Shown: in pieces, positions 6,926 to 62,777 of the stretch
Position numbering within the stretch: position 1 is the stretch's first letter
Layout of the letters: each line of letters starts with the position of its first letter
Source: Amphiscolops sp. MND2022
Lineage: Eukaryota
Direction: 5' to 3'
Assembly (NCBI GenBank): GCA_964187785.1
Contig: OZ076409.1
Coordinates: 41,046,001-41,110,000 of the forward strand
Length of the DNA: 64,000 nucleotides
Notes under the pieces: generated by a model
Told to the model about the DNA's origin: nothing
Seen by the model: the letters and a program-made list of their open reading frames with translations, nothing else
Databases searched by the model: none
Made by a program: the position numbers and the translations under genes

Positions 6926-6927
6926 GA

Positions 6928-25082: not shown

Positions 25083-25976
25083 TATAATTTTCTTGGCAAT
25101 TTTCGAAGCTAGCTGAGTCAACAGTTTGTCGATGAAATATGAGATAGAATGAATATATCAATTTTAGGAGATTAGCCGAGTTCGGCCTTTTTCCGACAAT
25201 CCGTTTTGGCGGAAGAATTCCTCGGTTGATTCTCCCTATCCGACGTAAACATTTCTGAATGGAATTCCATAATTAGTCGGCTATCTTTGATGATTCAATG
25301 TTTACCCCTCATCAGCAACACCGCTTGGAGAGGTGTGAATAACACTCAAGTTGTTAAAACCAACTTCATGATTTTCAAGTGGGTAATTAACAGGTCGCCT
25401 GAAGGTAATTAGCGGAGCGCGCCGTAACTTCTTCTTAACATGGCGTTAACCAATCAGATTCTTCCGTAGATAAATTGAAAAATTAATAAATAAAATGGCG
25501 GAAAATAATAATTCCGAATATTCCAAAATGGCGAATTTCTAACTAAGGGTAAATAAGGGCAACTGAACAAAACGGCAAAACAACACGGGGCAAACGGCCA
25601 TAACCGGCCTCTAATTAAATAAGCTGTAAATAACAAAGATCTTTGTACACTTCGCTGGCAGACTCCATGTACAGAATAAATATGTAGATAATCCATAATA
25701 TTAGTCTGGTAATAATCTTCAGCCACGAACTCCAACTTTCTAATTCATTATATTTATTTCCTGATTCAATTCCAATTCCATTTGAATTCCGTTTATTCTC
25801 CATTTGTATTCTATTTGGAATTTCCTGATCAGCGATTATCTCGATCTATCTCCAGCTTCGACGCTGACTCTCCGGAGTACTGCGGATTCCCCTTTTACGT
25901 CATAGCCGATCCTAGTCTGTTCCCTCATCAACTCTATCCAGATCAGGATCGATTCCAGAAAGGCGCCCCTTGCAGA

Positions 25977-30419: not shown

Positions 30420-30634
30420 TTGTACATATGTATTTATGTACCTACAAACTGTAAACTTTGTTGATTTTCTGTTTTGTTCCTTTTGATTTCTTGATGTCTT
30501 GATCCCTCATTTATTCCTTTTGTATGGGATCCTTTGAAATGCCCCAGTATTTATTCAAAAGAAGTTCTCAGAGGGGCTTGAAAAGATAAAAGATAGCAGA
30601 AAAGAACTCCCATTTTCGGGAAAAATTCAATTCT

Positions 30635-40730: not shown

Positions 40731-41713
40731 CAGTGTTTACACTCTTGGATTACTTGCCAAGATCTTGGATTTTCCTACAAAATCCTGCTACCTCTTGAAT
40801 TTCTTGAAAAGATCTTGGAAAGTTTTACTTCTGTCAAAAATCTTGAAAAAATTCTTGACACGAAATTGCCAAGGTTTTTATCAAGAAATCCGGGAGGTGA
40901 AAATTTCGAACAATTCAAAATTTAGTAATAACACTAAATTTTGAATTGTTCAAAATTAGGTCTCGAGAAACACTTAATTTTGAACTGTCCGAAATTAGGT
41001 CGCGAGTAACGAGTAGGTCTCGTATTTTGGGCCGTGTTATGGGAATTTGTTTTAAAAAATACCCTTTTATCAGCAATTTTACAGCCAATTTCAATGGGCA
41101 ATTGTCTGCAATTACTATTTCTGCAACTTTTCAATCATATATGATCATATTTGGTTCTGAAATTTGTAATTTTCAGCTCCTAAATCCTTTCTAATTGGAT
41201 ATTGTTTTCAGTTGTTAGATCAAAATTTTGCTTGATTCAGATCAAAATTTGAAATTGTTAAAGAAGAATTCAATGATTTTCCAACTTCATCTGCCTTTTT
41301 TAGATCTTTAATGATCGATTTTTGGTCTGAAAAATTCTGAAACGATCCAAATAGTTTTCGGATTGTAATTCCAAAATATTTGGATCTGATTTTCGATCCC
41401 ATCAGATAATGAATTTGTTCAACTAGGATCTGAATTTGCAATTGTTAGAGCAGAATTGAATGATTTTCCAAGAGTTCTAGGACATTGCGCCCAATAATTT
41501 GAAAGTCTTGAGGCCTCTTGCATTTTCTTGCTTATTCTTGGTTTCTTCATGAAACTCTTAATAAGAATCTTGGCATTTCTCGAATTTCCTGGCACGATCT
41601 TGCAATATCTTGCAAACTCGTGAGTTTTTTGGTGACAAACTTGGAAAGATCCTTACCAAGAAATCCGAGAATATCCAAGATTTTTATCGAGAGTTTCATG
41701 AGTTTTTACACTG
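40731..41713. mobile_element. Non-autonomous TIR element (CAGTGT...ACACTG) with CAAGATCTTG-type subterminal repeats
   Basis: CAGTGTTTACACTCTTG at 40731 versus GAGTTTTTACACTG ending at 41713. Similar single ends occur near 45890 and 46288. Confidence 0.55.
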
Positions 41714-42199
41714 CGCATGACAGATTTTGCGCACATACTCAGGTTTCAAAATAATGGAAACAAAATCTTGTCTTTTGACTGACGGATAACAGCAATTTCT
41801 TGAGAGGGGCTAAGCAGTCGAATCGAAGTGAATCCCCTTTTTTTAAAAAATACTTTGGATAAGGAATAAGTGAAGAAAATATTCCCTTTTTGGGATTTCG
41901 GGAATTTTTATTTAGCTTTGGTTCTTTCGTTTTTTTGGTGATAAGACTAGAGGCTAAGCCTCATATTTTTGCTTAGGTTCATGTTTTTAGTTGGCGCTTT
42001 TCTAGTAAGAAGTGCCCGACTATTACAGTGGCTAGTTTTTTTCTTTTTTTTTCGTCAGACCAAATAGCTCACCCTGTATGTACCACTTTTTGTGCATTAT
42101 GCAATGTACCAAAAGTACTCAGTTCTTGATTTTGAACGCATCCAAAAGCCTCTAACTTGGAATACAAAACCCAGAAGTGTCTTTTATTCCAATTTTTGG

Positions 42200-43860
42200 T
42201 ACTATGAGACTGTCCCGCCCCTTTTTTCGACTTTGTGAGACTTTTCGAAATTTATTAATGTCTCCAAAGGGCCCCCTTCAATTTCTTTTGATATTTTGCA
42301 ACTGGATGGATGTTGAAAAAACCCCAAGGGCCCCCTTTTCCATTTTTCGGCACTAGAAGTCTATGTTGAATATTCTCATTTTTCGCTTTTTTTCGAATTT
42401 TTTGTAAATTTCTCCAAAGGGTCCCTCCTTCATTTTTTTTGATATTTTGCAACAAACAAAAAACCATTCCAAAGCAGAAAGGCCCCCTTTCCATTATTTT
42501 GGCAATTTGAGACTTTCCACGCCCCCTTTTTCGGCTTTGTGAGACTTTTTCGAATTTTTTAAATGTCTCTTAAGGGCCCCTACTTCAGTTGTTTTGATAT
42601 TTAGAACTAAATGAATGTTGAAAAAGCCCAAAGAGTCCCCTCTTTTACATTTTTCGGCACTGAGACTGTTCCAAATGCTGATTTTTTGTTTTTTTTGCGA
42701 AAATTTTAAATGTCTCCAAAGGGTTCCGTCATAATTTTTAAAAATATTTTGCAACAAGCTGGATTTTCAAAAATCCGAAAGGGTCCCCTTTACAATTTTA
42801 AAAGTTTTCGCGCTTTTTGAGCCTTAGATGTAGCGCCGACTTCTTGTTCACGTCTTGTTTCCCGTCTTGTTTCCCATCGTGTTTCCGTATTGTTTCTTTT
42901 TTTCCGTCAGACCACTGAGCTCACCCTGTATGTACCACTTTTTGGTAGAGAGATTAATCGGCTTAGGGAAATCCCAGCGTTCGCGGGTTCGAGAACCTGC
43001 TTCAGTCAGAACATTTTCTGTGCATTTGCAAAACCGGACGAGACTAAAGGGTCCTATTTCAAATCTTTTCGACTATTTTTCGAAAAATTTTCTTTATCTC
43101 CAAAGGGTTCCCCTTTAATTTTCTTGATACTTTTCAGCAAACATGATTTTCGAAAATCCCAAATGATGATGCCAAATCCCAAATCTAAAATGCCTGTTAC
43201 AATTTTCGGCATTTTTAGATTTTTTGAAAAGATTATTTTTGTATTAAACCTCTGACTGGACCAGCAAAATTTTGTTGTTTTTTTAAGACCGGTTTTTTCC
43301 GTACTATGCAACTTTTTTCTAATTTGTTTTTATCGAAGCCCAGTGATAGCAAAGTAATCGAGACGGTGAATAATTGGATTTTTTTGAGTTTCTGTTGAAA
43401 TAGTGGAAGCTGCATTGTAATCCTAGAAAACTTTTTCAAGCAGGTTATCGGAATTTTCTATGTATGGTGAAAAATTACCTTGCATACATGAAAGTAGCAT
43501 GAAAAACTTCCGAACAGATTTATTTCGGGCTTGCACTTTTTCCAGCAAGATATTTTGGAAATATTTACTAGAAAGTTTTACAAGAAACGAAATTTTTTGC
43601 GTGCATAGAGGACTCCTTAGGGTTTTCGGCTATATGTGACTTTTTTCGAATGAAAAAATTCAGATTTCTTTGAATCCACCCAATTCGGGGTAAAAGTAGT
43701 TTCCGAGTCTTTGCGTATCCAGTTGGACATTTTTTAACTAAGTAAAAATGATGAAAAATTGAACTATAGTGTCCTGTGTCCTTTTGCATATTCGAAAAGC
43801 TTTACCCTTTTTTGAATCTTGACCGGTGCGCCGACTTGGGCCGCTCCCGGCTTTTTCTAA
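42200..43860. repeat. Patchwork of a dispersed AT-rich repeat family ending in GCGCCGACTTGGGCCGxTCCCGGCTT
   Basis: Recurrent AAAGGGxCCC and TTTTTCGGCACT units. The same terminal motif appears near 1635-1665, 16470-16505, 17570-17600, 39660-39690 and 43830-43855. Confidence 0.6.
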
Positions 43861-44509
43861 ACTACAGACTCAGTGAATGAAGTAGCCAGGCGAACAAAAA
43901 GAAGAAGGTGCCACATAGTTAGCAAAGCAAAAAGAGAGACCAGTGGAATCAAGAGGAAATGAGACTGAGCCATTCAATCAGTGCTGGATCAGTCAGAGCA
44001 AGTAGTAGCAAGTTCCGTTGAACTCTACGAGAACCAATTTTATTATACCACGCCATTCACCAGGTTCTGGTGCACATCATCAACCCCATTTGAATGTGTT
44101 TATAGAAGCTGAGTGTTAAATCTTCGAAAGATAAAACACTGGTCTCGATATACCTGGTGTATATCGAGTCCAGCATTTTATTTTTCGAAGGTTTAACACT
44201 CAGCTTCTATAAACACACTCAAATGGGGTTAATGATGTGCACCAGAACCTGGTGAATGGCGTGGTATAATAAAATCAGTTCTCGTAGAGTTCAACAGAAC
44301 TTGCTAATACTTGCTCTGATTGATCCAGCACTGATTGAATGGCTCAGTCTCATTTCCTCTTGATTCCACTGGTCTCTCTTTTTGCTTTGCTAACTATGTC
44401 GCACATTCTTCTTTTTGTTCGCCTGGCTACTTCATTCACTGAGGCTGTAGTTTAGAAGAAGCCGGGAGCGGCCCAAGTCGGCGCCCCTGTCAAGTTTCAA
44501 AAGAGGGTA
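43803..44509. repeat. About 700-bp foldback inverted repeat (350-bp arms, ~5-nt loop, scattered mismatches)
   Basis: Centre CTCGATATAC-ctggt-GTATATCGAG near 44156; arms pair out to TACCC/GGGTA. Confidence 0.95.
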
Positions 44510-45579: not shown

Positions 45580-45779
45580 AATGATGAAAAATTGATCAAA
45601 ATAGTAATAAAATCAAGATATTAAATCATGATATAAAATCTTGATGAGGACCATACTCCTCAGGTTTCTGCCGTGGAGCGCTCCACGGCAGAAACCTGAG
45701 GAGTATGGTCCTCATCAAGATTTTATATCATGATTTAATATCTTGATTTTATTACTATTTTGATCAATTTTTCATCATT
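45580..45779. repeat. 200-bp perfect palindrome
   Basis: Centre GGAGC|GCTCC at 45679/45680; 100-bp arms. Confidence 0.95.
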
Positions 45780-45972: not shown

Positions 45973-46919
45973 TACTTTTTAGGTGCTGCAACTCGAGACT
46001 GCTGTATAGTCACCCGTGCCGACTTTCAGCTGAATCAAAGACAAAAAATTTATAATGACGCGCGTCGAACAACAGCAAAATACTTTTAAACAAAATTGAT
46101 GTTTGTTTTACAACTTTATTCATTCTCTTGACACTCTTGATAAGACTCTTGCCAAGAATACTATCAAGAAATTCAAGAGGTTTGTGTGAAGCAAGAATAA
46201 ACAAGATCTTATCAAGAGTTTCAAGAGTAAACAGGAATATGTAAGAATATGCAAGATCTTGGCAAGAGTTCCAAGAGTTTTTACACTGGGCAAGGAAAGG
46301 TCAAATAAGAAAGTTACCGTTTTGTATAACTTCAAAAGGGTCCTTTAGGCCTACAAGGCAAGCGTGTTATATCACCATAAGTTGAGCTTTTACAAGGATC
46401 AAATCGATATATCAAAAGTTATTGCAAAAATTGCGAGCTATCGAGTTTTAGTGTTTTTTGAATCGATCGTGCTAACAAAAAAGCCAATATTTCTAAACAG
46501 CATCTGATATTCTTTAAAATCCAGATGACAAGTTTTAAAAAGTGTTTTGGCTAGCTAGCTGAAAACCATCGACACTGAGGGACAATTGGCGGAGCTACCC
46601 AAGAAAAAAAGATATATGTTGTTAGGATTGCAATGCAGGTCCTTGAATAACAGCAGACCAGGCAAATAGAATTTATTAAATCTTGGCATGTCAGATTTAT
46701 CTTTTGCAGTTTTGCCAGTTTTTATTGAAAACAAGACTGGAATGGCATAAGTCGGCTACCCGCTTAGAGCTCGAAACAAACAAAAGTACTTCAAAGCGTC
46801 AAGGACTCTTTTTTCACAAATTCTCAATTTCACAGTACCGAAGAAGAAATCCAAAGAGGGTCATTTTGGCACTAAAAGGGCTTTATTGTATTGATTCACC
46901 TAAATCATCAATGACATTG

Positions 46920-47690
46920 TGTAACGGCAAGCTGTTATCGGTCGCTTAACACGTTAACAGAGGTGGAGGAACCTGCAGGAATGGGTGATTCGCTCGGGAC
47001 AGGCGCCCATCGCCACAGATCCATTTTGCCTCCAGGGGTAATACGTCCCGGGGCCGCGGGTGCTTCGACGAATACTGTCCAACCGGTCCTAGTCTTTGAT
47101 TGCTAATAGTAACGGGCATCTTTCTGGCTCTCTAAAGACCACCGCTTAACTAGCATATAAAAACAATGCCAAGAATAAGGTAAATTTCCAGTTCCAGGGT
47201 GACATATGAATAAGATCTAAAATTGGGGAATAAGATCTAAACTAGCGCTAGCGCTACTGAATACAGCCAAAATCACTGAAAATACATGAAAACAGGCACG
47301 AATATGGCAAACCACACAGCTAAAAAGCTGGGGCGCAGGGGCTCCAAGCACCAAACAAGGATCCTTAGGCGAAAAGACTCATTTTTACGGTTTCCGCTAC
47401 ATAGGGTAGCATAATGCTGAAAATCGATAAAACCGGTGTTAGCACCTCAAAAAGAGTCTATTTTCGGATGTTCTTGCCGTCTCTGGCTTCTGTCATGGCG
47501 GCGCGCCCGTGTTTTTGCTCGTTCTTGCTCTTTGTTGTCGAAGTACCTGCCAATTTCGTGGAAACAGCGAAAAGAGCAATCACATGCTCAGTGCCACGTC
47601 ACACATCGAATTAGAATTTTTGACAAAATTTCTGAACATGTCAAAGTTGCAAAATCGGTTGATATTGCTGTACCAGAGCTTGCCGTTACA
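46920..47690 (-). repeat. 3' LTR of the non-autonomous element
   Basis: About six substitutions versus 53792-54562, counted by eye. Confidence 0.92.
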
Positions 47691-48783
47691 TCACTCCCCG
47701 GGCTTTATGCATGACGTCCCTGTCATGCGGAGAGGCTGGCATTGAATACATCGCCACATCATGAGTGCAATCCACGGGGATCTCAAACTGGTGATGTTGC
47801 AATGGTCCAGTGGCACTGTCATCTTTTGCTGATTGGGCAACCGTGAGGTCTTGCTTCTTGCCATCCAGAGAACCTGCATCGTCCAGAAACTGTTGAAACA
47901 GAGCTAGCTCGAGAGCTAGAAAACCAGTACTCAAAAATGCACCTTGAAATTGATCAAATCCAAGATTCCATACTTCAATCAAAAAAGCACCATTTTTTAG
48001 CACGAGTTTTCTGCAAAAGACTGAATAGGTTACTGCTAGCACTTTGGTTTTTGGACGTCTAAAAATTCTTTTACGGAGCGCTCACGCTCCAAAGCGCACG
48101 TGGTTCTCAGCAAAACATCTTTTCCACGGCAATAAAATTTCAGTTTGCAGCAGTCAAAAGTTCTTTTCGCTAAAACTTCTTTTCAGTAGAAAAACCACTG
48201 TTTAAAAGGAAGACAAGCTGTTTCTTTGACACTTTTTGTTCACAGTTAAGCTTGGTTTGGGCAACACGCACTGAAGTGCAGCTCCATACCTGTGTAGAGT
48301 TCTGTAGCATCTGTCAAGGAGCGCATCAGAAGCAAACTACGAACTGCTCGTAAGAGTAAGCACTGGAGTAAAGTAGACAAAAGTAGATCAAATCTTGCCA
48401 TTTGCAGATCAGGAGCGCGCGCGCTTCTTATTTTTCCGGATATCACGTTCGAATCTGGAGGAAACTTCTGGAAATCTTGAAAAAAAACAAAAATAGCACT
48501 TTTCGGGCGTAGCAATACATGTAGAGTTTTTGGGTTATTTATTGAATTAACAGAAGTATTTGAATTCAAACATCTCAAATAAAACTAAAACAAAATGTCG
48601 CGACGTACGTTCACATGACTACTAAAATTACGAAACAAAGTTGCAGAAAAAACTGCTCCAACAAGAACATCAAGGTATCCATTACCAAACGTAGTGATAT
48701 CCTCCGGGCGTTATCCAATTGAGTTGATGAGTGCAGGGGTGTTTGTCTTCAACTGAGGCTCCCCGGTCGTTGAGCACCCTCTT

Positions 48784-49776
48784 TCACATGAGGATAGTGA
48801 GGAATGGACGAAATTGAATGCCTGACATAAAAATGCAGCAGGAAAAATTAAGCGTTGACGACACCTCCTCCCCCTTTGAAAAGAAGTGGAGTGTGGTTTG
48901 GACTGGATAGACATCACCATCCAATAGCAGCAGGACGTGCAACAAGCATGAAGCATCAGGAAATCCGATAAAGAAAACTGTGGAGACTGGGTCTGTCTCA
49001 AGACTGGAATAGTTGTTCGGAGGACGGCCACGCCTATGTCCCTTCGGTCGAAGCGACCATGCTAGAACTTGGCGTGGTGGACGGCCACGGCGACGTCCAT
49101 CGTAAAGGGACAACAGAACTTTTTTCCATGAGTGCTCACAGTCTGTGCGGGGTGGTCGACCACGTCTATGACCAGTTGGTCGAGTTTTAGCTGAACCACC
49201 AGGCAACCAATTGATAAAGACTGGCGGGTCCACCTGAATAAAATCCTGTAGCCCACGTTTAGCAGAATGTGGCTCAAAGGAGTCTTTCCGCAAATTCGGT
49301 AGCAACTTCGTAGTTGATATTAGGGACTTTGTTCCAGGGAAGTGAGAGTTGCTTACAGAATCTTGCGATAAGGAAGTGGAGGGTGAGATTGATATTCGTT
49401 CATTCTTCGTATCACTTGAGTGGAGGTTGCGCTCGCGCAACCCATTATCATCGGCGTGATATTCAGCCAAAGTCTCAGCAATACACAAAGCAATCCATAT
49501 GGTTGTGGTGTGCAAAGATATTGGGTCCACCCCCATGTCTTTTGTTGGCGGTGTCAATGGTTCTGATTCGACGGCGTCTGAAATATTGATCTGCATTTGT
49601 GCTAGCGCTCGAGCTAGCGCTCGCGCTAGCAGTTTCTCCCTGCAAAGCGTGCTTTGTTCCAAAAAGTCTGATATCTCATCCATCCAGAGTCCCGTAGTCG
49701 AGAGTGCGTCCCAGGCACGCAACACTGCTGACTTGAACTGTTCAGGATCAAATTTCGAAGACCCATAGGAGTCCAT
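48784..49776 (-). CDS. 330-aa ORF with three AT-hook-like motifs
   Basis: GHRRGRPPR, GRRRGRPPR and GHRRGRPPN. It is the only long ORF in the element and has an ATG start. Confidence 0.65.
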   Translation of the reverse strand: MDSYGSSKFDPEQFKSAVLRAWDALSTTGLWMDEISDFLEQSTLCREKLLARALARALAQMQINISDAVESEPLTPPTKDMGVDPISLHTTTIWIALCIAETLAEYHADDNGLRERNLHSSDTKNERISISPSTSLSQDSVSNSHFPGTKSLISTTKLLPNLRKDSFEPHSAKRGLQDFIQVDPPVFINWLPGGSAKTRPTGHRRGRPPRTDCEHSWKKVLLSLYDGRRRGRPPRQVLAWSLRPKGHRRGRPPNNYSSLETDPVSTVFFIGFPDASCLLHVLLLLDGDVYPVQTTLHFFSKGEEVSSTLNFSCCIFMSGIQFRPFLTILM

Positions 49777-52700
49777 AATTTATGACGCCTGCCGGCAATT
49801 TTTTTGAACTGTGGGATTTGCCTCGTTTGCACCCAGGAAGGTCTATTGGGTCCCTTCCGTTGGAAAATGAAGGCTTTTTGGGTTTGTCTCCTGTACAGCG
49901 GAAGTATTGAAGGTTTACACTGATAGTTTTTCTGGCGTTTTTTGGAATTTTGTTCAAGACGTGTGTCTGAATTGAGTCAAATTCAGTTATATCAATCCTA
50001 CTGGGTAAAAAATGACACAGCACGTTTCGTCAGCCACACAAGTCTGAAAAATATTCTTCCGTAGCTGATAATTGTCTCCAGCTCCAAGCTAGAGCCTTTT
50101 TCAACGATTTTTGGATTTTTCAACTTTTTTCGAAAATCACTCAGATGGCTTTTACAAGTGCTGGAAACGTGGTATCGGGCTCAAAATTGGTCACGCGATC
50201 ACACGTATAGCCAGCTACACTACAGTAACAACCAATGAGAATTCAGACCACTGGGCGAGATTTAGATCTGGTACGGACGTTCCGTATCACCGTGTTTCGA
50301 TTGACACTATTTTTCACATGCAATCAAAGACTCTCGTCCACAGTGCTGAGCTCTCGAGCTCACTTTTTCAGCAACGGTGCACCAAATGACACTAATAAGA
50401 ATAGTCCAGGGCAATGTAATCCCAACTTCCCAATAAGGTGCGCCGACAATTCCAAAAAAATGATCCAATTCGTTACAATACACAGGATATCACAACTTCA
50501 AGTAACAAAATGCTATGATTCAGCAAGGCAGCCCACTCGTTACTGATCAAATATTACACGCACAGTAATGAACGAACTACTGGGAGAACAAACTAGGGGT
50601 TTCCACAGGTTTCCAACACGTAGAAAGGACTTTTTTCTCACTTTCCCAGTTTTCGTCTCGGTGAAACCTCTAACTGACACAATGAATATGCACGTCCAAG
50701 AAGAGTCAAAACTAGTTCCAAGGGTTGTAGCGTGCTGGAAGGTATCCAGCACTTCCGGATTGATGCACTGACCTAGAAAATGAGTCCAGGATCGGGGTAT
50801 TAGGATCCAGTCACAGGTCAGAGGATTTTCAGATATTTTTTGGGTTTTTCAGCTTCACTTGAAAAAAACTCCAGAGGCTAGCGCTAACGCTAGAAACGCA
50901 GGATCGGCTTCAAAATCAACCACACATCCCACGTAAGTTGAGATACACGGGAATAATAGCTGATTTGTGCTGAGGTGACTAGGTGAAGGTTCAACACAGT
51001 AGAGACTTTCGGTATCACCGTGTTCCAAGATGTACTGTTTTTCACGTGTCAACCCAGATTCTGGCGAACTGCAAACAGCGCTCACGCTCGTTTTTTCGGC
51101 AACATTACGATAAGTTTGCACTGGTTACGATAGTGGGCAGCAATTTGGCCCCACTCTTTGAATAAGGTGTTCAGGCAATCCCACAAGACTTCGTAGAATT
51201 CGCCTTCTTGCGCACCTTCTTGTGCAGTTTGTTTTAGTCAATTTCTCAACAGATATAGTAGCAATTGACACCAAACTTGGCAGTCGCTGTCAGTAGGCAC
51301 CAACCACGCTGTTAGAATAGTAAAACAGACGCTGGTAGGCTTCAGGGGGTCTCCTCAAGGATTTGGCCCTCTGCTCGTCTCGGTGAGGACATAAGAAAAT
51401 TGATGTTTTTTCAACGTCCAAGATTTTTCAAAACACGTTCTAGGGCTTGTAGGCTGTTCAAATTTGCACAGCGCTTTCTCACAAGCACACTGAGCCAGAA
51501 AATCAACCTCGTTTAGGGCAAAAAGGCTCCGGTCACTCACAGGAAGAATTTCAAAGAATTTTTGGTTTTTCCAAAAATCGCACAACAACACTCAAGAGGC
51601 TCGTGTGTGCGCTGGAAGCGCTGTATCAAGCCCAAAATTGACCAGCAGATCTTAGGTACACGTAGGTTTACGAAAATGAACACAGAATTTAGCTGCGCCC
51701 CTTCTACACAGTTTCACTTAGGTACAGACGTGCGGTATCACTATGTACCAAATTACACTGTTTTTCACGTCTTTTTCAAGATTGCGGTCCACTTGAAGGA
51801 GCTAGCAAGCTCAAATTCTCTGCAGCAACGTAGGAACTAGCACAGGTTACGATGGTGGGCTGCAATATAGCCCCACCCGTCGGCTAAGGTACCCGGGTTA
51901 CTCAGAAAAATTAAGAAAAAACTGCCTTTTTGCGCACCTTTTTGGGTGCCACGTTTTTCCTATTTTCTCAACAAGTATCACACTGATCGGCACCAAACTT
52001 GGTAGTTTATGCCAGTGGGCACCTACAATGCCACTAAAATGGTCGAATTGAAGCGCGAGCGCTTTTTTGAGGTTTCGATCCACTATGTACGTTGTACACG
52101 AAAAAACACTGTTTTTGACGACTTTTTTCACAAATTGACCAAGAGGATCACCTCAGAAAGTGATACGGCGGGCAAAATGGGACCAACGTGTTGCCCCACT
52201 ATCCGTAGCACTGTTATAAACCCTCAATTGGTTGTGCCCGTTAGGTATAAGGCACTGACAGTCCTGCAGTTTTGGATTTTTTCGGTCCTCTTACGCTTCT
52301 CTGAAGTCGAAACGTCAGAGAGCTTTTCTTAACTTTGGTGAGCGATACGCTCACCAAATTTTCGGCACTAACGTTAATTTTGATGGTAGTTACGAAAATG
52401 CAACCACTTTTTGGCTAGGGTTCAGGAATCGATGACCCGACCCTAGCTCAGAGACAGTCCGGTTTTGTGGACAATTGATCAAATTCAGTGCGTTTTTCCA
52501 CTTTTCTCAGCACTGAATGGGAGTTTTTACACGCGGTTTTCACCACCACGCGTTATTTTTACTACAAAAACAGAAAATGAGAGCGCGCAGGCTCCCAGGT
52601 CACGAAAACACTGAGTGCTCCAGAGGTTTTAATGATGCACTCCGGCACTCCTGAAACTGGCCAATAATCAAGGTTTTTCGACCCCTTCTCACCAAGAAAA

Positions 52701-53758
52701 CGTTACAAGCTCTCTTAAATCCTCTTTTCGGTACTGTGGAGTGTGCCCCAAACTAATAGCAGCACGGAAGAGGCAATTACATCACAATCCAGCACTCTCC
52801 CAGTGGCATTTCATAGTGGTTTCTTGCCAATTTCGCCAAAAACCGGGTTTTTTCATGCAAAATGTGTCTCAAAAAGGTCTCCAACGGCCTTTCTGGTTGT
52901 CGTTACATTATGTAGCATAACCCTCAAGGTTTTGGGCTGCTTTCTATTCATTTTTGCAACTAATGTGGCTAATACTTCGAGCGCTCGCGCTCGTACCAAG
53001 AAAAGTACTCAAAAACGCCAAAAATCACGTTTTTGCGACTTTTGCACTAAAAATCGCACTTTTTTCACTGAAAACAGGTGCAAAAGCACACACTGAGCTG
53101 CAACAAAGGAAAACAAGCCTTACCAAACAATTCCCCGTCGCAAAAGGTGTATTCTCAAAATTTTCGCCAACCATGAGCCATTTGAGCGACACTTCTGGTC
53201 ACAGGGGTACATCTTCACCACGCTTTTTCTCCACATCCAGACCAGATAGAGACACGCGGTTTAGTCCATTAGCATCGTCTACTCTTGCACTTGCTGTCCA
53301 CCAAAAACCATGCCTCTAGGACGTCTCCACGAGAAATGGCAGTAGGAAGTAGGCAACACACGATTTGACCCCGCTGCCGCCTCGCTGGCTCGTGGCTGAC
53401 CATCCACCAGTCACCTTCTTGCATGGCATAAAATGGCTGAAAATAGCTCAAAAAACCTGTTAAACACCCGTAGCCACGTGGTACGGTCCTCTACACCTGC
53501 AAAAAAGATACCCGCTGATGGGAACCTTGCAATTTTAGACGATATCTGTCAACAAGTACCTGTTATAAAAACATACCAAAGGTACTCGGAAAAATCCCCT
53601 GAAAGACTGGAAAAATACCAAAATATAACGTCATATCATCTAAAAAATTTGGAAAAACTCTGGGTAAACGTCTCCTTCCAGAGTCCAATCGTTCTTGGCG
53701 TCCAATACCAGGGGGTCGGAAATTTCAAAACCATATAATAGGGCAGTAATCGGAAGCG

Positions 53759-53776
53759 ATCCCTCTGTGGTCGCCA
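53759..53776 (-). promoter_or_regulatory. Primer-binding site, tRNA-Arg-like
   Basis: TGGCGACCACAGAGGGAT lies 15 nt inside the right-hand LTR and resembles known tRNA-Arg primer sites (TGGCGACCAC...GGGA). Confidence 0.7.
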
Positions 53777-53791
53777 AAAAATGAGGTCTCA

Positions 53792-54562
53792 TGTAACGGC
53801 AAGCTGTTATCGGTCGCTTAACACGTTAACAGAGATGGAGGAACCTGCAGGAATGGGTGATTCGCTCGGGACAGGCGCCCATCGCCACAGATCCATTTTG
53901 CCTCCAGGGGTAATACGTCCCGGGGCCGCGGGTGCTTCGACGAATACTGTCCAACCGGTCCTAGTCTTTGATTGCTAATAGTAACGGGCATCTTTCTGGC
54001 TCTCTAAAGACCACCGCTTAACTAGCATATAAAAACAATGCCAAGAATAAGGTAAATTTCCAGTTCCAGGGTGACATGTGAATAAGATCTAAAATTGGGG
54101 AATAAGATCTAAACTAGCGCTAGCGCTACTGAATACAGCCAAAATCACTGAAAATACATGAAAACAGGCACAAATATGGCAAACCACACAGCAAAAAAGC
54201 TGGGGCGCAGGGGCTCCAAGCACCAAACAAGGATCTTTAGGCGAAAAGACTCATTTTTACGGTTTCCGCTACATAGGGTAGCATAATGCTGAAAATCGAT
54301 AAAACCGGTGTTAGCACCTCAAAAAGAGTCTATTTTCGGATGTTTTTGCCGTCTCTGGCTTCTGTCATGGCGGCGCGCCCGTGTTTTTGCTCGTTCTTGC
54401 TCTTTGTTGTCGAAGTACCTGCCAATTTCGTGGAAACAGCGAAAAGAGCAATCACATGCTCAGTGCCACGTCACACATCGAATTAGAATTTTTGACAAAA
54501 TTTCTGAACATGTCAAAGTTGCAAAATCGGTTGATATTGCTGTACCAGAGCTTGCCGTTACA
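53792..54562 (-). repeat. 5' LTR of the non-autonomous element
   Basis: Direct repeat of 46920-47690, adjacent to the PBS. Confidence 0.92.
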
Positions 54563-54930
54563 TTGAATGTAACCTCAAAAATTGGATCATGTGATTTTTT
54601 CCACTTTAGAAGGACGCGAAACATCAAAACAGATTCGAACCACTGCCTCCTCCCTAGTAAAACGCAATTGAGATCTGTTATAACGACAAAGATTCGGATA
54701 AGACGTGCTTACCTGTAGGCCAAGTGACAGTTAAAAGTTACTAAGTTAACTTGAAGAAATGTGTATGAAATCTGTCAGTTCGCTGGTCTTAAAAAAGCGA
54801 TGCTATAGTCAGGTCTTCTTTTGGAAAAGCGCCGACTAAAAAAACAGGAGCACACTCTTTAATTGCTATCGAACGCAGACTTTGGACGCAACTGATTAGC
54901 GGCAAAAAAGTTTCGCACGAGAATAACGGA

Positions 54931-56081
54931 TGTTGGCGCCTCAAAATTTGTTCCGAAAAATTGAAGGAAAAATAAGTCGAGTTAGTCAATTTCAAAATGC
55001 TGTAAAAATGTGTAGAATTGAATTTGAGTGCTAGTTTTCGCCCAATCGACATATTTCGACCCAAATGAGAGATTTAAACTATAAAATCGAAAATCGAAGT
55101 CAAAAAATTTTCAATTCCCCTCTTACGTCCCATTTTGGATTCCTTTTTCAAAGTCAGTGTATATTTGGACTTTATTCTTTGTTTATCGTATTTAACTTGA
55201 TATGAACTCCATATTTGGGCTACGTGGGTGTCTCTAGGACCCATGAGGACTATTTGTCAACTTCACTGAGTATTTCACAGCAAATAACATGTGTAAATGT
55301 ATGCCTTAATCTTGCTTAAATGTATGTCTTTTATATATACTTTTACATATTTTGGTGTATACCTCAAGCCCAGTTAAATAGTTTGTTTCTGTTTATTCTA
55401 TATATCGAAGCGCTTGTATGGTGATGGTAAATTTAACCACAAACATCCGCCATTTGGTATTTCCTGTATGCTAAAGTAACCAGAGTTAACTCCTACTAAG
55501 ACACACAGCAACCAAGTAGAGATTCGAATCAGTCGACTTTGCTACTCAAGTATTGAAGAAAGTGAAAGCTTGGAAGTTTCTCGTACAATTAATTCAGTTA
55601 ACTCTGGCTATTGAAGAGCTTTTTGGAGTTGAGCAAGTGATATTATATTGTTTCGAAATTCCAACGTCAATTTATTATATTGCATATGGTTGCGACATTT
55701 TTGCTTGAGAAAGTTATCGTGGACACAAGGATTGGGATCGATCAATTGGTTTAGCAGATCAACAGAAGCTACTCGTCATCAGGACAGCTAAGTTGATTCC
55801 TATAGTTACAGTTTAAAGCTACTTTATGTTTGCGAAACAGAATGAGTGCAAAGTCAAAGATGCAGTAATTGCTTCACCGACTTCCGAAACTTATTCAAAG
55901 TAACGCAAGCAAAAATTTTCATTGAAATTAGTTGCGAATTACCTATTGAAGGTTCTTGATAAGTGGTTTTTGCAAGTGCCTTTCCTGCATATATCAGATA
56001 TAGAAATTGTCCGCAAGTTGTCAACCAAGCCGTCGTAAAGCTTGGTAAGTGTTTCTGTTAGTTTACCTTGCAGACGCAAAA
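54931..56081 (+). repeat. 5' LTR of the Bel/Pao element
   Basis: Runs TGTTGGCGCC...AGACGCAAAA; highly similar to 62744-63894. Confidence 0.95.
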
Positions 56082-56084
56082 TTT

Positions 56085-56102
56085 TGGTGCCGCGACCCGG
56101 GA
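56085..56102 (+). promoter_or_regulatory. Primer-binding site (tRNA-Phe- or His-like)
   Basis: TGGTGCCGCGACCCGGGA, 3 nt after the LTR. Confidence 0.75.
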
Positions 56103-56178
56103 AGGCACTCTGCAAATTTAATCCACTTGAGCTTTGTGAAACTTGCCTATCTGACAGCTGTGAAAAAAGCAAAAGACA

Positions 56179-59100
56179 ATGGCTGAAGGTGGGCTTTATG
56201 ATCCTCAATTCATTACCGTGTCAAAAAATGGAACTGAAAGAAAAGTCCCATTTTCGGATTCGTTAAAAAACTCATCCACATTGAGCGACTGGATCAATCA
56301 TGAAAAACGGGTAGTTGACATTGTCTCGACCATTCGAAATATGGAACTTGACTTGCGAAATATCAAATCAAGCAATCCAGTTCTTTGGATCGATAAGGGC
56401 AATTTTTGTTTAAAGTTTTGGGCGTCTAAGGATGAATTGAAGAAAGAATTCGAACTGTATCTTCCAATGTTGAAAGAAAAGAACCAAAGTGATCGCAGAA
56501 CGGCTCTTAGAAAACTAAATTTGGAATTCGAAGAAAGATTCACAGAATGGTGTGAAGACCTCCGAAATCTTGGATTTATCGGTAGCCTTCCCCAGAAGTT
56601 AAAAGATGAAAGAGATTTGCTGAAGTTTTGTAGGTCCGTGGATCAATTTTTCGAAACGACACGAAACTTGTCCAGTGAACTAGATACGATTAACAATTTG
56701 ATGAAACAAGAAGAAAGGTCAAGTAAAGTGAAGTCATCCATACAAAAACTTCAAGAATTGAAAACTAAGCTGGACAAGGTTTACGAAAGTGTGTGTAGCC
56801 AGCTAAAAACAGAATCAATTGGGGAGTTGTCAATGTTTGAAAGGAATGTTAGAGATTTCAGTGTGAAAATACAACAAGCGACGACAGATTCATTGTACTA
56901 TGTCGATCGTTTGAATGAAGTAAAAGATCATTGGAACCAACCAATAACCTCAGATGGGGTGGGGGAAACTACATCAATGAAAGACATTCCAGTGACATCG
57001 ACTGGCGATGAAAGTAGTCAAACTCGGATTTTGCGCCAAAGTGCAAACGATACACTAGAAAAGAGTCTGAAATTGCTAAGAGATGTTAACCAATCCACAG
57101 CGTTTGATAAGAGTGAGAACCGTACGGAAGTTGCTCCTCGGCAAACAGGTTCAGCGACTTTCAGTACAGTGAAACGACGTTCATTAGTGGACTTCTCACC
57201 TTCAAGAACCTGCCGAAAAGTGATACCTGCAAACGGTTGGGCTTAAGAGTGGGTTCCGAATTGTCAAGGGTTAGTGAACTACGACGCTTAGAGATGCATG
57301 CTAAAGTGCTAGAACAAAAGCCTCAGTTAGAAATTGAGAAAAGGCAGCGAGAACTGAAAATGGAGAAAACGAAAAAGCAAATGGAAATGGAATTGGAGAT
57401 GCATCAGAAGCTCCTAGATCTACAAGCGGAAACTGAAATTGCTGAAATGGAAAGCAGAAAAGCGCTTGAGCAGCACGAAATGAGACTACAAATAGAAGAA
57501 GCTGAGGGGTCCGTTCGTGCTTTGTCGATTTGTCCCAGCTTGATGTCTCTCACCCTTGGAGAAGACAAAAACAGTGACATCAGAAGCTGGTTGAAACGAA
57601 GTGATGAAAATCTCGAAAAGGGCTTTCCACAACCGAAGGAATCTAGTAGAGAGGTAGAAATCAAAAGTGGATCAAGAAGACTACCTCAGAGATTTCCAAA
57701 ACACTCTCCTCAAAAAAATCAATTGCTGACTTCGCAACCTCATAGCAGAGGTACCAGTAAGTCACCTCCGAGAAAAAGCACTGCAATCAATTTTCCAAAA
57801 ACAAAACCTTCACTTCAGCAAGGCAATTACGAACCGAAGTCAAAACATGAATTCGCGAATCCCACTTTCAAAGTAGAAAATCCTTTTCCTTCCTTTACCC
57901 CAGCAGTACCTCTACAGCAACATGTCCATTTTGTTTGAACAAGTTTACCTAAGCTAAAATTATCTGAATTTCACGGAGATCCATTGGAATGGCCGTAATG
58001 GTCCAGCTTGTTTACAGCAACCATCCATAATGCACCAATCGATGACAATGCAAAAATGAGTCATTTGAAAACGATCGTTAAAGGTAAAGCCAAGGCGGCA
58101 ATTGCTGGTCTTGAGTACTCAGGAATCATGTATAGTGCTGCATGGAATGCTTTGGTTACCAATTTCGGACGTCCGCAAACAATTGTGAATGCGCAGATGA
58201 AGCAAATCCATCTGAATCCGTTTATCAAGTCGCATGACTCAGCAGCTATTATAAAGTATGCTCAGTTGATCACTACTTGTGTCAATGTATTGAAACAATT
58301 TGGTTTCACTGGAGATTTGTACTCAGAATCAGTCCTTAATTCAGCTTTGAGAAAGTTACCTCCTGAATTGAAAACAAAATGGTTTTTCCTTGCAAAAAGC
58401 AAAAGCTACTATAATGCAGATCTTTGCAAGTTTAGCGAGTGGCTAAATGATGTTGCCTATGTGCATGATGAAATGATGGTGCAATTCAAAACACCATTTG
58501 AGAAAAAAGCCACTGGATCAACCGAAAAGGTTAAGACTTCAACATTTGCTGCCAATGACCAAGGTAAACCAACATCAACTTCTATTAAGCAATGTCCATT
58601 AAAAGATGGCGAACATAAAATTTGGATGTGCAACAAATTCAAACAGCAAGCTGTCAACGAAAGATATGAAACGTTGAAAAAACTGAAACTATGTTTCTGT
58701 TGTCTTAATTCTCACCTGATTAAAGACTGCAAATCAGAACGTGTCTGCAATGTGAATGGTTGCACTAAGAAACACAACAGGCTTCTACACTCTGATGCGC
58801 AGAAAATAGATAAAGTCACATATGACAAGAAAACAGAAGACTCGGTGCCTCAAAGCAGGGCCGGCAGCTCTTCAATGATGTCGACAGGCAATAACGGTTT
58901 CTTACAACTGATTCCTATTTCGATAGGTAAAGAAAAACGATGCGTTGAAACCATTGCGCTCTGTGATACCGGATCCACTGTTTCGTTTATGGATCAAAGT
59001 TTGGTTGATCTTCTCAGGTTGAAAGGTAAAGAGTCCGTAATGTCCGTTGCTGGCATTCATGGTTTGTCTGATTTGAAAACGCAAATAGTAACAGCCAAAG

Positions 59101-62100
59101 TGGGTTCCAGCGAAGCAGAAACGGCTGGAGAGACTGTAACGTTCTGCAGTCACCCTAACCTAAATGTTGGTGAAAAAGACTATGACTTCAGAAAACTAAA
59201 AGAAGAGTACCAATATTTATCTGATCTGCCTAATATTAAAGTCTCAATGACTGATGTTAAAGTGATTTTCGGACAGCATGCTTATCATTTGATCAGGCCG
59301 CTGGAATACAAATCTGGCGAAAGAAATCAACCATGAGCAGTTAAAACAGCACTAGGTTGGACCATTAGCGGAGCCTTGCCAAAAAAGGAAACAAGTAACA
59401 TATCGGTTTCTTGCAACCTTTCAGTTGCACCCGACCCACTGGCAAATCAGATGAAAAAATGGTGGGACATGGAGACATACGCGTCAGTGTGTGATGTCTC
59501 TGGTCGATCCAAAGGAGAAAAGAGAGCACTGTCAATTTTAGAAAGAATAACAAAGCATAACGGTGAACGTTATGAAGTGGGTTTAATGTGGGCTGATGAC
59601 AATCCCGATCTGCCTAACAATTATTACTCAGCATATCAGCAGTTCTTGTCGATGGAAAAAAAGATTTGAGAAAGACCTTGAATTGAAAGAAGCTTACAAA
59701 GCTACCATTGAGAAGGACTTGGAAAACCATTTTATTCGAAAACTGGATCAGGAAGAAGTTTCCAGTACAGAGAATGATATGCAATGGTACTTACCTCATC
59801 ACCCAGTGAAACATCCACATAAGCCAGGCAAGGTCAGAGGAGTTTGTAATGCGGCTTCAAAGTTTAGATGCGTTTCGCTAAATGACAAACTTCTAAGTGG
59901 ACCTGATTTATTGCGCAACTTAGTGGGAATTGTTTCCAGGTTCAAAGAGCACCTGATAGCAATCACTGCCGATATAGAGTCAATGTTTTTACAAGTAGCA
60001 GTTCCGAAAGAAGAATGTAGAGTTCTACGTTTTCTTTGGCGAGATAAACCAGAAGATAACATTGCAATTTTCGAGTATAATAGGCATGTGTTCGGAGCAA
60101 AGAGTTCCCCAACGTGTGCCAATTATGGTTTCCAACAAGGCGGTAGAGATAACAAAAAGGAGTTTCCTGTAGCAGCCGCTACAATAGACAGAAACTTCTA
60201 TATGGACGACCTCGTCAAGAGTGTTGATACACCTCAAGAGGCCATTGAATGTTATCAACAGTTAGTGGAAACACTGAAGCGCAGTGGCTATACTTTAAAG
60301 AAATGGGTGAGCAATTGCCCTGAAGTGCTTGAAGTTATCCCCTCGGAAGACCATCTGGAATCTAATGAATTTACATTGAATGCGGATTCATCGCCCATCC
60401 TAGGTCTCGAATGGACCATAGATTCGGATAGTCTTCAAGTCTGCCGAGGACCAAACAAAGAATGTCCACAAGAAATAACGCAACGAGTGGTACTATCTTT
60501 TGTTTCATCGGTATTTGATCCCATGGGAATCTTCGCACCGTTTACCATGCGAATGAGAATGCTTTTGAAGAGGATTTGGATCCGTTTTGGTCAGTCGTGG
60601 GACGAAAATATCAATGAAGAAGATAAAAGAATATTCTTCGAGTGGGTACAAGAAATGCAGACAATTAAGCAGACATCTCTTTCCCGGAAGTATTTTTCCA
60701 ATATCCCCAAGAACGTGCAGTTACATATTTTCAGTGATGCCTCTTTGGAAGCAATGTGCATTGTTGCATATCTTCGAGGAGAACTCGAAGATGGCATCGA
60801 AGTGTCCTTTGTGTTGGGCAAATGCAGAATAGCTCCTATCAAACAGTTGTCTATTCCTCGTCTAGAGCTACAAGCAGCCTTGTATTCTGTGAGGTTGAGA
60901 AAGTTGATCATTCAAGAACACGATTTACCTATTAATGGTGTAACTCATTGGACAGATTCCGTTACCGTATTGCAATGGTTGAACTCCGCGGACAAAAAGC
61001 AGAATGTCTTTGTTGCCAATAGAGCAGCTGAAATTCTGGAAAACTCCTCCATTGACGAATGGAAACATATCCGAGGCGAGTTGAATCCATCTGACATTGG
61101 AACTCGTGGGATAACTATAGAAAAGTTATCTGAAAGCGAATGGTTAACCGGACCTTCTTGGTTGAAAGACCAGCCTGAGGATTGGCCGTTATCTTTGCCT
61201 CCAATTCACGTGAATTCTGATGATCATGCTGAAGTTGCACTAATTGCGAACACAAGTATGACTCAGGAGCCACCTGTTGATTGGAAAAAATTAGTAGTTT
61301 CTCGAAATGCGTCCGTGTTATCGCGTTTTGTTTGCGGTTGAAGTATAAAAGTCAATCTAAAGTTTTACTTGTTGAAGAATTGAATCGATCAGAGGATAGA
61401 GTTTTGAAAATGATTCAGAAAGAATCTTTCCCGGACCTTTTTGATGAGAAGGAAAGTTTCGGTAAAACTAAAAAAGGCGGAAATCTATCAAAATTTGCAC
61501 CCTTCTTTGATGAAAAAGGAGTTATCAGAATTAGGGGTCGCATCAAACATGCCAACTTGAGCTTCGAACAGCGTCATCCAGTATTGTTATCTACGAAACA
61601 CGACATGGTAATGACCATGTTGCGAGATCTACACTTCGAACACAATCATGAAGGTGTAGAGTATGTGAGAAGTGTTATTCAACAGAAATTTTGGATAATC
61701 GGGTTACGAAATGCTTTGAGGAGTGTTAAAACTAGTTGTGTATTCTGTCGCAAATTACGTGCACAGAATAAAACCCCGTTCATAGCCGACTTACCCCCAG
61801 AGAGACCTGATTATCAGTCATATCCGTTTACCAACGTTGTGGTGGATTATTTCGGTCCGTTTGAGGTGAAATTATTAGGAAGATCTATGAAACGTTGGTG
61901 CTGCTTATTTACATGTTTAACTACCAGAGCAGTACATATCGAAGTGGTTCGAAGTCTTGACACAGATTCTTGCTTGGTAGCTATCAACAGATTTATTGCT
62001 AGACGCGGCAAGCCGACTACTATCATCAGCGATAATGGTACTAACTTCGTTGGATCAGCAAGAGAGTTGAAGGAGTACATCAACTCATGGAATCAAGATC

Positions 62101-62777
62101 AAATAACGCCAGAGCTTGCTCAGAAGCACATTGTATGGAAGTTTAACCCTCCTGGCGCACCCCATTTTGGTGGTGTATGGGAGAGATTAGTTAGAAGTTG
62201 CAAAAAGGCAATGGTGGCTATATTGGGTAATCGATCTCTTACAGATGAAGTTTTATTGACAACTATGTGCTTAGTGGAACAAACATTAAATGCGCGTCCT
62301 ATTACTCCAGCAAGCGATGATCCTGAAGATCTTGAACCACTTACACCGAACCATTTTATTATTGGTCGAGCGAATGTTTGCATTCCCTTTATTCCAAACG
62401 CAGAGGTTTATGCTAACCAAAGAAAGATGTTCAGATCAAGCCAAGCTTATGCAGACATGATTTGGAACAGATGGGTGAACGAATACCTCATTTAGAACAA
62501 TGTAAGAGAACAATGGAAGGAGCCAGAGCCAAATATTCAAGTTGGAGATCTTGTTTGGCTGATAGAAGACAATGTTAGAAGGTCTCACTACAAGATGGCG
62601 CGAGTCATTGAAGTATTCCCTGGAAAAGATGGTATTGTGAGATCAGCACTAATCAAAACTGTCAATGGAACCCTGAAACGACCTGTGGTTAAACTGGCAC
62701 CACTTTTTGAAAAGCGTTTTCGCGCTGAAAACGGGGCCGGCATTGTTGGCGCCTCAAAATTTGTTCCGAAAAATTGA
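56179..62777 (+). pseudogene. Bel/Pao gag-pol polyprotein with several stops and frameshifts
   Basis: LPKLKLSEFHGDPLEWP (Bel/Pao gag), triple Cys/His knuckles (CPLKDGEH..C, CFCCLNSH..C, CNVNGCTKKH..LLH), LCDTGS protease, FYMDD RT, FSDAS/IPRLEL/WTDS RNase H, DYFGP/SDNGTNF/GGVWER integrase. Stops at 57938, about 57998, 59336 and 62495; frameshifts near 57240, 59665 and 61290. Confidence 0.93.

Follow-up and report, generated by a model that had tools for sequence, protein, structure and literature searches.

The window, by which we mean the whole 64-kb stretch of DNA analysed here, holds an LTR element of 7643 bp at 46920-54562, together with neighbouring gypsy and Bel/Pao elements. The PBS, the PPT and the ORF place its sense on the minus strand. 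Its features, listed in the sense direction, are:

53792-54562, minus strand: 5' LTR, 771 bp, TG..CA, with a 14-bp terminal inverted repeat
53759-53776, minus strand: PBS of tRNA-Arg type, 15 of 18 bases as in the tRNA-Arg of PMC11905727
49800-53770, minus strand: 4-kb non-coding leader with PATC-like, ~10.2-bp phased AA/TT tracts, peaking at 52236-53770
52290-52490, minus strand: hairpin cluster (folding z -6.6, reached by 0 of 200 shuffles; best of 50 windows)
50060-52235, unstranded: tandem array of three diverged units, each ~722-729 bp long and 52-59% identical, with few indels
48784-49776, minus strand: ORF of 330 aa with a gag-like N-part and three hooks, without capsid
49261-49683, minus strand: gag-homologous part of the ORF, matching P0229, P0228 and P0347
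49167-49150, 49092-49075 and 49035-49018, minus strand: three AT-hook-type RRGRPP motifs (the hooks)
47700-48783, minus strand: 3' non-coding region, present in other copies too, as far as 48329 at least
47691-47699, minus strand: PPT-like tract adjoining the 3' LTR
46920-47690, minus strand: 3' LTR, 771 bp
46915-46919, plus strand: probable 5-bp TSD CATTG, recurring at 54561-54565, where it overlaps the terminal CA

The element is bounded by two LTRs with TG..CA ends, as expected of an LTR retrotransposon insertion, and these differ at 6 of 771 sites (five transitions and one transversion; K2P 0.0078), in agreement with the near-identical 771-bp LTRs reported in an earlier note on this DNA. 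The tRNA-Arg-like PBS and the PPT-like tract described there were also found, after the 5' LTR and before the 3' LTR, with the PBS lying 15 nt inward of the LTR rather than adjoining it. Its matching bases were counted by hand against a tRNA-Arg sequence, quoted in PMC11905727, that may not be the host's. No tRNA gene was found in the window, and an Rfam search gave no matches at E ≤ 5. The CATTG repeat is probably the target-site duplication of the element; its presence at both flanks has a chance of ~0.4% over three registers, and it does not form a clean TSD. Both neighbouring elements, gypsy and Bel/Pao, have clean 5-bp TSDs. Bel/Pao elements are known only from metazoans, and the Bel/Pao neighbour therefore suggests an animal host. 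A young, multi-copy element whose interior is common to its copies is supported, in line with the young LTR element of the earlier note: 384 protein clusters make up the family of the ORF, and 14 of 281 family proteins read through into the 3' non-coding region.

The interior encodes no recognisable enzymes, and here too the earlier claim that protease, RT and integrase are missing stands. Pfam scans of all five interior ORFs examined gave no families at E ≤ 1, and tblastn of the neighbouring gypsy and Bel/Pao proteins against the element reached a best E of 0.038 among the matches listed. When 120 gag/pol relatives were compared with the element, seven matched at E ≤ 1e-3, every time within the ORF; none gave a pol match, and no gag-pol remnant was found downstream of the ORF. 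The element does not encode the set of capsid, protease, RT, RNase H and integrase carried by an autonomous Ty3/gypsy element. It is a non-autonomous LTR element, with the cis parts present (LTRs, tRNA-Arg PBS and PPT) and the enzymes and capsid absent.

The one long ORF, with its three RRGRPP motifs, was found as the earlier note described it. It is made up, in order, of a 28-aa subfamily leader, the second half of a gag coiled coil, a disordered gag-N linker, the hooks and a frame-labile tail, and is a shortened form lacking about 125 residues found in long forms. The hooks have the central RGR(P) core with basic flanks of an AT-hook and are spaced by 25 aa and then 19 aa. In HMGA, three hooks stand 20-30 aa apart. 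The RRGRPP motif lacks the proline that precedes RGRP in the HMGA consensus, and Pfam AT_hook did not match the ORF, nor was there an HMGA sequence match (0 Pfam families). The ESM Atlas gave no usable match for the ORF, and an AlphaFold model built from 77 sequences (the window ORF and 76 of 227 relatives) was of low confidence, with pLDDT 56, pTM 0.28 and 139 of 330 residues below pLDDT 50. Between the PBS and the ORF there are 4 kb and 25 ATGs, so that translation of the ORF would depend on internal initiation, on splicing or on an IRES.

The N-terminal part of the ORF is related to gag. Over the pre-capsid N-terminus of gypsy gag-pol, the window ORF is 69-71% identical (E about 1e-47), and it is 64% identical to P0347 over a longer stretch. 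Long hook forms are 76-86% identical, in the best-aligned stretch, to the N-terminus of the capsid-bearing P0229, P0238 and P0430. The capsid of this partner lineage, which also carries protease, RT and RNase H, was assigned because P0238 is 61% identical to P0337, which in turn matches PNMA at 4.8e-6; a PDB sequence search with P0238 gave weak matches only (E ≥ 0.17). With a profile of the ORF N-part, matches at E < 0.001 were obtained to 15 of the 213 gag/pol proteins that belong to other lineages, while none of the 213 reversed and none of the 639 shuffled controls matched. Residual coding homology to an autonomous-type Ty3/gypsy lineage is present. By these comparisons the hook gene is a capsid-less gag derivative at the gag position, with the hooks standing where gag continues into capsid. 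The statement of the earlier note that there is no gag thus stands for capsid and zinc knuckle and fails for the ORF itself, which is homologous to the gag N-terminus. Its idea of an accessory gene separate from gag is not supported, as the N-part corresponds to the N-terminal extension that gag has in a gypsy lineage.

Junctions between the two kinds of protein run both ways. Among 536 proteins, we observed two kinds of hookN-to-gag junction (8 and 9 cases) and 25 gagN-to-hook junctions, while a capsid motif together with at least two hooks was seen in none. These reciprocal chimeras point to co-packaging by a gypsy gag-pol helper. The 120 family clusters listed comprise 501 sequences. In the literature covered, which consisted mostly of open-access texts, we found no non-autonomous LTR element described as having a gag that lacks capsid and bears AT-hooks.

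Several comparisons bear on whether the protein has been maintained. Hooks 1 and 3, chosen for comparison after the motif had been seen, differ at nine sites, eight of them third codon positions (P = 0.001). Across 57 old copies, mean pairwise identity was 0.70 in hook columns, 0.48 in other columns and 0.56 in other R/G/P columns, and all three RGRP were retained in 141 of 165 young copies. Changes shared by at least 5 young copies numbered 0 at 18 hook columns and 32 at 108 others (p 0.048); over the three thresholds used, this shortage gave p 0.048, 0.30 and 0.14, and was significant at one of the three. Elsewhere in the protein, the substitutions that young copies share were not more conservative than their private substitutions (BLOSUM -0.57 to -1.0 vs -0.69). 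A reading-frame test with 25 main-frame and 9 shifted-frame copies gave p 0.20; P0138 (frame 2) was left out of the shifted-frame set, since this protein also has a match in the main frame. It appears, from substitution patterns, that the hooks were under protein-level selection, and no clear constraint is seen on the rest of the protein in young copies. The earlier suggestion that the element keeps the gene, if taken to mean present selection, holds weakly, for the protected hooks and not for the drifting remainder.

Upstream of the ORF, the leader is strongly phased. It contains 61 A/T tracts where 9.8 are expected, none of 300 run-shuffles reached the observed phasing, and it supplies the top three of 63 sliding windows across the 64 kb (z 7.7-12). 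By our own autocorrelation test, which is not the published PATC algorithm, it has the ~10-bp periodic An/Tn clusters over kilobases that characterise PATCs. The gypsy and Bel/Pao neighbours show no such phasing. Host DNA at 1-5900 is also phased (0 of 300 shuffles), and phasing with z > 3 was seen in 8 of 63 sliding windows, four of which touch the element; since some host DNA shares the property, it may be a habit of the genome. Short tandem repeats were rejected as the source of the phasing, as TRF finds just scattered 15-30-bp arrays. No further copy of the ~725-bp unit was found in the window with nhmmer. Decayed coding sequence was rejected as the origin of these units, which lack codon periodicity and have transitions roughly equal to or below transversions. 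Folding reached z ≤ -2 in 5 of 50 windows, all five within the leader, and the hairpin cluster is a candidate packaging or dimerisation signal. A shared fold of the three repeats is weak (alifold 0 of 40 shuffles; SCI 0.39, reached by 4 of 40). Covariation counts for the repeats were discarded as circular, the structure having been derived from the same three sequences.

We propose that the element is a recent insertion in an animal genome and belongs to a non-autonomous Ty3/gypsy-derived family that is both large and old. That it is a helper-dependent gypsy derivative with a gag-derived ORF is very probable. Its RNA would be packaged and copied in particles of the gag-pro-RT-RNaseH lineage, and template switching in shared particles would produce the reciprocal gag/hook chimeras. 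Terminal cis sequences suffice for trans-mobilisation in Ty1 and Ty3, according to the part of PMC4974528 that treats them. Part of the particle gene would thus have become a likely DNA-gripping protein, and the long stretch of evenly spaced A/T runs is one to which such a protein could bind. The least certain step is that the product would be a mostly disordered, HMGA-like minor-groove binder, possibly oligomerising through the remaining coiled coil. It may bind the phased A/T tracts of its own 4-kb leader and LTR, and this binding could keep the copies transcribed or open against host silencing. AT-hooks contact AT-rich minor grooves via RGR (PMC11354804, section 2.1.2). To the account as a whole, a gag-derived hook element with a self-binding protein, we give slightly less than an even chance, and the self-binding function itself is put forward more tentatively still. 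A further reading, in which gag was recast as an HMGA-like triple AT-hook protein that forms a self-contained module with its own cognate phased A/T array, seems unlikely; such a module would shield the element from silencing or steer insertion, and recombination would swap it with the helper's gag in both directions.

The ORF could instead be a passenger in an element that, as a LARD or TRIM does, needs no more than its cis signals to move, with the hooks selected in an ancestor, the gene now drifting in young subfamilies and the leader repeats serving RNA packaging or nothing. We consider this rather unlikely, although the lack of conservative bias among shared changes, the non-significant frame test, the frame-labile tail, the at least four N-terminal architectures among the 120 clusters and the confinement of strong folding to the leader all fit it. 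It sits less well with the absence of shared changes at hook columns, significant at one threshold only, and with the retrieval of every successful architecture in frame into the hooks, in a search that favours such copies. A role inside the particle is less probable again: the protein would co-assemble with helper Gag via its coiled coil, with the hooks acting on element RNA or cDNA or tethering the particle to AT-rich chromatin, or would poison helper assembly as Ty1 p22 does. The coiled-coil half is the one N-terminal piece that long forms, window-type forms and mid-deletion forms all retain; AT-hooks are able to bind RNA as well (as described in PMC11354804), and with p22 there is already a case of a truncated Gag that acts on Gag (in the account of PMC4974528). 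The 27 clusters with a partner-gag piece, however, keep just the last few residues of the coil. Ty1 p22 also retains part of the capsid, which has no counterpart in the hook protein.

Simple deletion from an autonomous parent with gag-pol and a separate AT-hook accessory ORF, for instance a duplicated 5' gag segment, seems quite improbable to us. Deletion within such a parent could yield the hookN-to-gag chimeras, P0229 has two related N-terminal segments in tandem, and plant Retand elements bear extra, putatively DNA-binding ORFs (as presented in PMC11963269), but chimeras occur in both directions and the missing gag-pol remnant downstream of the ORF also speaks against it. A hook ORF and partner gag-pol share a contig in 2 of 42 cases, against 6 of 203 for other gypsies (contigs equated by their length, as a proxy); under this scenario that count has P 4e-6 if one third of hook contigs are listed and 0.2 if one tenth are. 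The hooks themselves may have arisen when an in-frame deletion fused the gag N-terminus to a post-integrase pol tail, a single RGRP then being triplicated. This origin, which is compatible with the gag-derived, self-binding element proposed above, is possible though on the doubtful side: RGRP occurs in the post-integrase tail of 8 of 135 cluster members and of P0266 and P0322, with a best alignment to hook 1 of 46% over 35 aa (E 0.03-0.3), but the hook-region profile misses these tails (E ≥ 4.7). Unique host DNA between two solo LTRs, the case named in the earlier note as fatal to its proposal, has next to no probability, as its one recommendation, the imperfect TSD, is outweighed by the PBS and PPT in place, by relatives of the ORF that number in the hundreds and by the sharing of the 3' interior among copies.

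A conserved, structured non-coding interior is one LARD criterion. The element resembles LARDs (Kalendar et al. 2004, via PMC4350172 and 10.64898/2026.03.01.708851) in being non-autonomous and longer than 4 kb with a long non-coding interior for which some structure is predicted, but its gag-derived ORF is still open and bears signs of selection at the hooks, so that internal coding regions have not been lost. The LARD label of the earlier note is accordingly a poor fit, as the passage on LARDs in PMC4350172 describes them as without coding regions, and here a 330-aa ORF has 384 relatives. With TR-GAG, as characterised by Chaparro et al. 2015 (PMC4350172), it shares LTRs, PBS, PPT, a single gag-related ORF, several copies and the lack of enzymes; those elements are under 4 kb, known from plants and algae and defined by a capsid domain, whereas this one is 7.6 kb and has three AT-hooks instead of the lost capsid. 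Retand/Tat elements with additional ORFs, as described in PMC11963269, likewise combine internal tandem repeats with an additional protein for which DNA binding and regulation of the element have been proposed. Those ORFs run antisense between pol and the 3' LTR and have no relationship to gag; the hook ORF is read in sense, derives from gag and follows the repeats. HMGA, in the account of PMC11354804, also has RGR-core hooks in a mostly disordered protein, but no sequence relationship was found, the core is RRGRPP rather than PRGRPK, and the N-terminus here is gag-derived. Ty1 p22 is similarly a shortened product of Gag with the potential to act on the full-length protein; as outlined in PMC4974528, it lacks the N-terminus and is made by an autonomous element, whereas the hook protein keeps only N-terminal parts. 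For the leader, the nearest likeness is to C. elegans PATCs and phased L1 ORF2, which are ~10-bp periodic A/T clusters that occur in transposons and stem from Helitron minisatellites or L1 coding sequence (10.64898/2026.08.08.743475). That source proposes that PATC-type phasing resists silencing and stresses a mechanical over a protein-binding role, and the words LTR and AT-hook do not occur in the available part of its text.

Non-autonomous LTR elements are usually viewed as empty shells or capsid donors. The hook family has apparently swapped its capsid for a predicted DNA-binding module, yet now numbers hundreds of copies. Should the protein bind the phased leader, the family would offer a compact natural test of whether the 10-bp phasing of A/T tracts in transposons works mechanically or through a bound protein, and of the means by which a parasite of a parasite ensures that it is transcribed; should the ORF be a passenger only, the family would be an ordinary non-autonomous one. 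The reciprocal chimeras provide a sequence-only handle on who packages whom.

Finally, we looked for the element in other collections. Protein scans confirmed no relative among 110 pattern matches in metagenome contigs or 8 in viral contigs, a 20-nt pattern did not occur in metagenome contigs, and a 14-nt LTR-end pattern occurred at 120 loci in viral contigs, none with further likeness to the element. Among sequencing runs, none of RNA was listed for this DNA, and one run was listed with a small share of it; one contig of that run spanned the LTR at 46949-47691 with seven differing letters and none contained the interior, which is no evidence either way.

The element works like a non-autonomous LTR retrotransposon. 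Its cis parts are kept, its enzymes and capsid are lost, the N-terminal part of its one long ORF (the hook ORF, 330 aa with three RRGRPP AT-hook-type motifs) derives from gag, chimeras connect it with a gag-pol lineage, and the non-coding leader between primer-binding site (PBS) and ORF is phased. The features discussed here are:

46920-54562, minus strand: the LTR element, with paired LTRs, PBS and purine tract
53776-53759, minus strand: its PBS, 15/18 bases matching the tRNA-Arg sequence of PMC11905727
52290-52490: hairpin cluster, the strongest of the low-z folding windows
22645-38710, minus strand: young, full-length Ty3/gypsy element; LTRs 1742 bp with 9 differences, 5-bp target duplication
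54931-63894, plus strand: Bel/Pao element; LTRs 1151 bp, target duplication ACGGA, pol broken
4580-4793, 43803-44509 and 45580-45779: near-perfect long palindromes; arms 107, 351 and 100 nt, spacers 0-5 nt

The near-identical LTRs, tRNA-Arg-like PBS and PPT-like tract described in the earlier note were all confirmed. The LTRs, 771 bp each with TG..CA termini and a 14-bp terminal inverted repeat, differ at 6/771 sites (K2P 0.0078), a divergence of the same order as in the gypsy neighbour (9/1742) and younger than in the Bel/Pao neighbour (27/1151). A purine tract directly adjoins the 3' LTR. The PBS is set 15 nt inward of the LTR edge, and with this spacer (53777-53791, minus strand) integrase would have a long end to trim; a short inverted repeat was observed at its start, and in the gypsy neighbour, unlike here, the PBS adjoins the LTR directly. 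CATTG on the left flank recurs at 54561-54565, overlapping the terminal CA (chance ~0.4%), which suggests a 5-bp target duplication minus two bases; both neighbours have clean 5-bp duplications.

The earlier note's reading that the interior lacks protease, RT and integrase also stood. A Pfam scan found no family in any of the five interior ORFs, while scoring the neighbours' pol genes strongly, and tblastn of the neighbours' proteins against the element gave no meaningful match among the matches listed. Seven of 120 gag/pol relatives matched the element, every time inside the hook ORF.

The hook ORF belongs to a family, with 384 of the 8000 scored candidates related to it at E<=0.1. An exhaustive search of the 50% representatives returned 108 matches with identity down to ~40%, and those of at least 150 aa that were inspected fell in the same family. 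In several cases, a hook ORF and a gypsy protein came from contigs of equal length. Because family proteins read into the flanking interior, with 14/281 extending into the 3' region as far as 48329 and 1/281 upstream to 50037, the interior is common to other copies, ruling out unique host DNA between two solo LTRs. Among the 120 listed clusters used for classing (all ENA-only and unnamed, standing for 501 sequences), 42 were of a long form, 23 of the shortened type seen in the window, 5 had another deletion and 27 included a piece of partner gag, while the remaining 23 start later or fall outside the classing patterns.

A search among longer proteins found two, each carrying an aspartic protease of the gag type. 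An onward search from these led to a gypsy lineage in which capsid, protease, RT and RNase H are all present; its capsid was called from 61% identity to P0337, itself a match to the gag-derived PNMA family. Long hook proteins share 76-86% identity with the gag N-terminus of this partner lineage over the best-aligned stretch, and the window ORF ~70% over 49683-49261. With a profile built solely from hook ORFs, 15/213 gag/pol proteins from other lineages scored E<0.001, with controls at 0/213 (reversed) and 0/639 (locally shuffled), so the homology is old. No protein among 536 combined a capsid motif with two hooks. The statement that gag is missing therefore held for the capsid and failed for the N-terminal part of the ORF. 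Likewise, the helical N-terminal region exists, and it is mostly the remainder of the gag coiled coil, since, relative to the long form, ~125 residues are missing from the window type, the first half of that coil among them. As a side observation, the gag lineage of P0229 and P0238 had no zinc-knuckle Pfam match; one was found in related lineages, for example P0237 and P0315.

Chimeras were observed in both directions. Among 536 proteins, the hook-ORF N-terminus was joined to gag at two junctions (8 and 9 proteins), and a gag piece was joined to the hook ORF in 25. No single gene order gives both classes by simple deletion, so the plain reading is that two RNAs within the same particle exchanged sequence, and we infer from these sequences that the reciprocal chimeras probably arose that way. 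Ty1 and Ty3 are established examples of trans-mobilisation that acts through terminal cis sequences (PMC4974528), and template switching among non-autonomous families has been reported in plants (10.64898/2026.03.01.708851).

Hooks 1 and 3, a region picked after the motif was seen, agree at 10/11 residues, and 8 of their 9 base differences lie at third positions (P 0.001). In 57 old copies, conservation was 0.70 in hook columns vs 0.48 in other columns and 0.56 in other R/G/P columns, and 141/165 young copies retained all three hook cores. Judged from these comparisons, the hooks were under selection in the past. Shared changes outside the hooks showed no conservative bias, the deficit of shared changes at the hooks reached p<0.05 at one of three thresholds, the reading-frame test of ORF copies gave p 0.20, and the tail after the hooks shifts frame freely. 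This pattern fits short motifs in a putatively disordered chain, and also fits recent decay. A possible source of the hooks is the post-integrase tail of pol, which in other gypsy lineages carries a single RGRP motif, but its similarity to hook 1 is marginal. Such long tails were seen in the related P0416, P0266, P0322, P0456, P0500 and P0504; in the first three, RGRP is followed by a YQLR..YKCGTCG..C.C cysteine cluster, a part without Pfam match in P0416.

The 4-kb leader, absent from the earlier note, includes three tandem ~725-bp units with 52-59% mutual identity, few indels and no codon signal found. It holds 61 A/T tracts of at least 5 (~10 expected) and an AA/TT periodicity of ~10.2 bp, matched by 0/300 run-preserving shuffles. 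The top three of 63 windows for phasing across the 64 kb all lie in it (z 7.7-12), and no A/T phasing was found in the neighbouring elements. All five of the 50 windows with folding z<=-2 were in the leader; the test for a fold common to the three repeats gave a weak signal. Host DNA at 1-5900 and 41001-43000 has its own ~10-bp AA/TT phasing. The palindromic GC-rich hexamers AGCGCT (22 observed vs 3.4 expected, both strands), GCTAGC and GAGCGC are over-represented across 46920-53791, LTR and ORF included.

In the proposed mechanism, the element RNA is probably packaged by the partner gag-pol lineage. Our preferred guess is that the hook protein might bind the phased tracts within the leader of its own element, which might help keep the element transcribed. 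AT-hooks bind the AT-rich minor groove through RGR (PMC11354804). In C. elegans, 10-bp phasing has been linked with silencing resistance, and the same has been proposed for active L1 (10.64898/2026.08.08.743475). That hooks and A/T tracts occur together in this element is no more than suggestive, and we regard a self-binding module as rather unlikely. The ORF may instead be a passenger, a particle adaptor or poison, or an accessory gene that comes from an autonomous parent. Hook ORF and partner gag-pol met on the same contig in 2/42 cases, no more frequently than for other gypsies (6/203), which argues against a hook gene as a regular part of the helper; the force of this comparison depends on the fraction of hook contigs seen.

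A LARD assignment was not borne out, since the element is coding, contrary to the definition in PMC4350172; by the TR-GAG definition there, it fails on size and on capsid. The hook ORF differs from the extra ORFs of Retand in strand, place and origin. A literature search at listing level, of incomplete coverage, found no description of a gag-derived AT-hook ORF in such an element.

Elsewhere in the window, the gypsy gag starts inside the LTR, and ~6 kb separate its integrase from the 3' LTR, with seven opposite-strand ORFs (167-293 aa, 26131-30419) that had no significant Pfam match. The Bel/Pao LTRs end in CAAAA in place of CA, and an inverted copy of the LTR, diverged (86%), is present at 19669-20649. 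The 17-bp tandem arrays at 5938-7138 are part of a dispersed repeat found again near 21475-22393.
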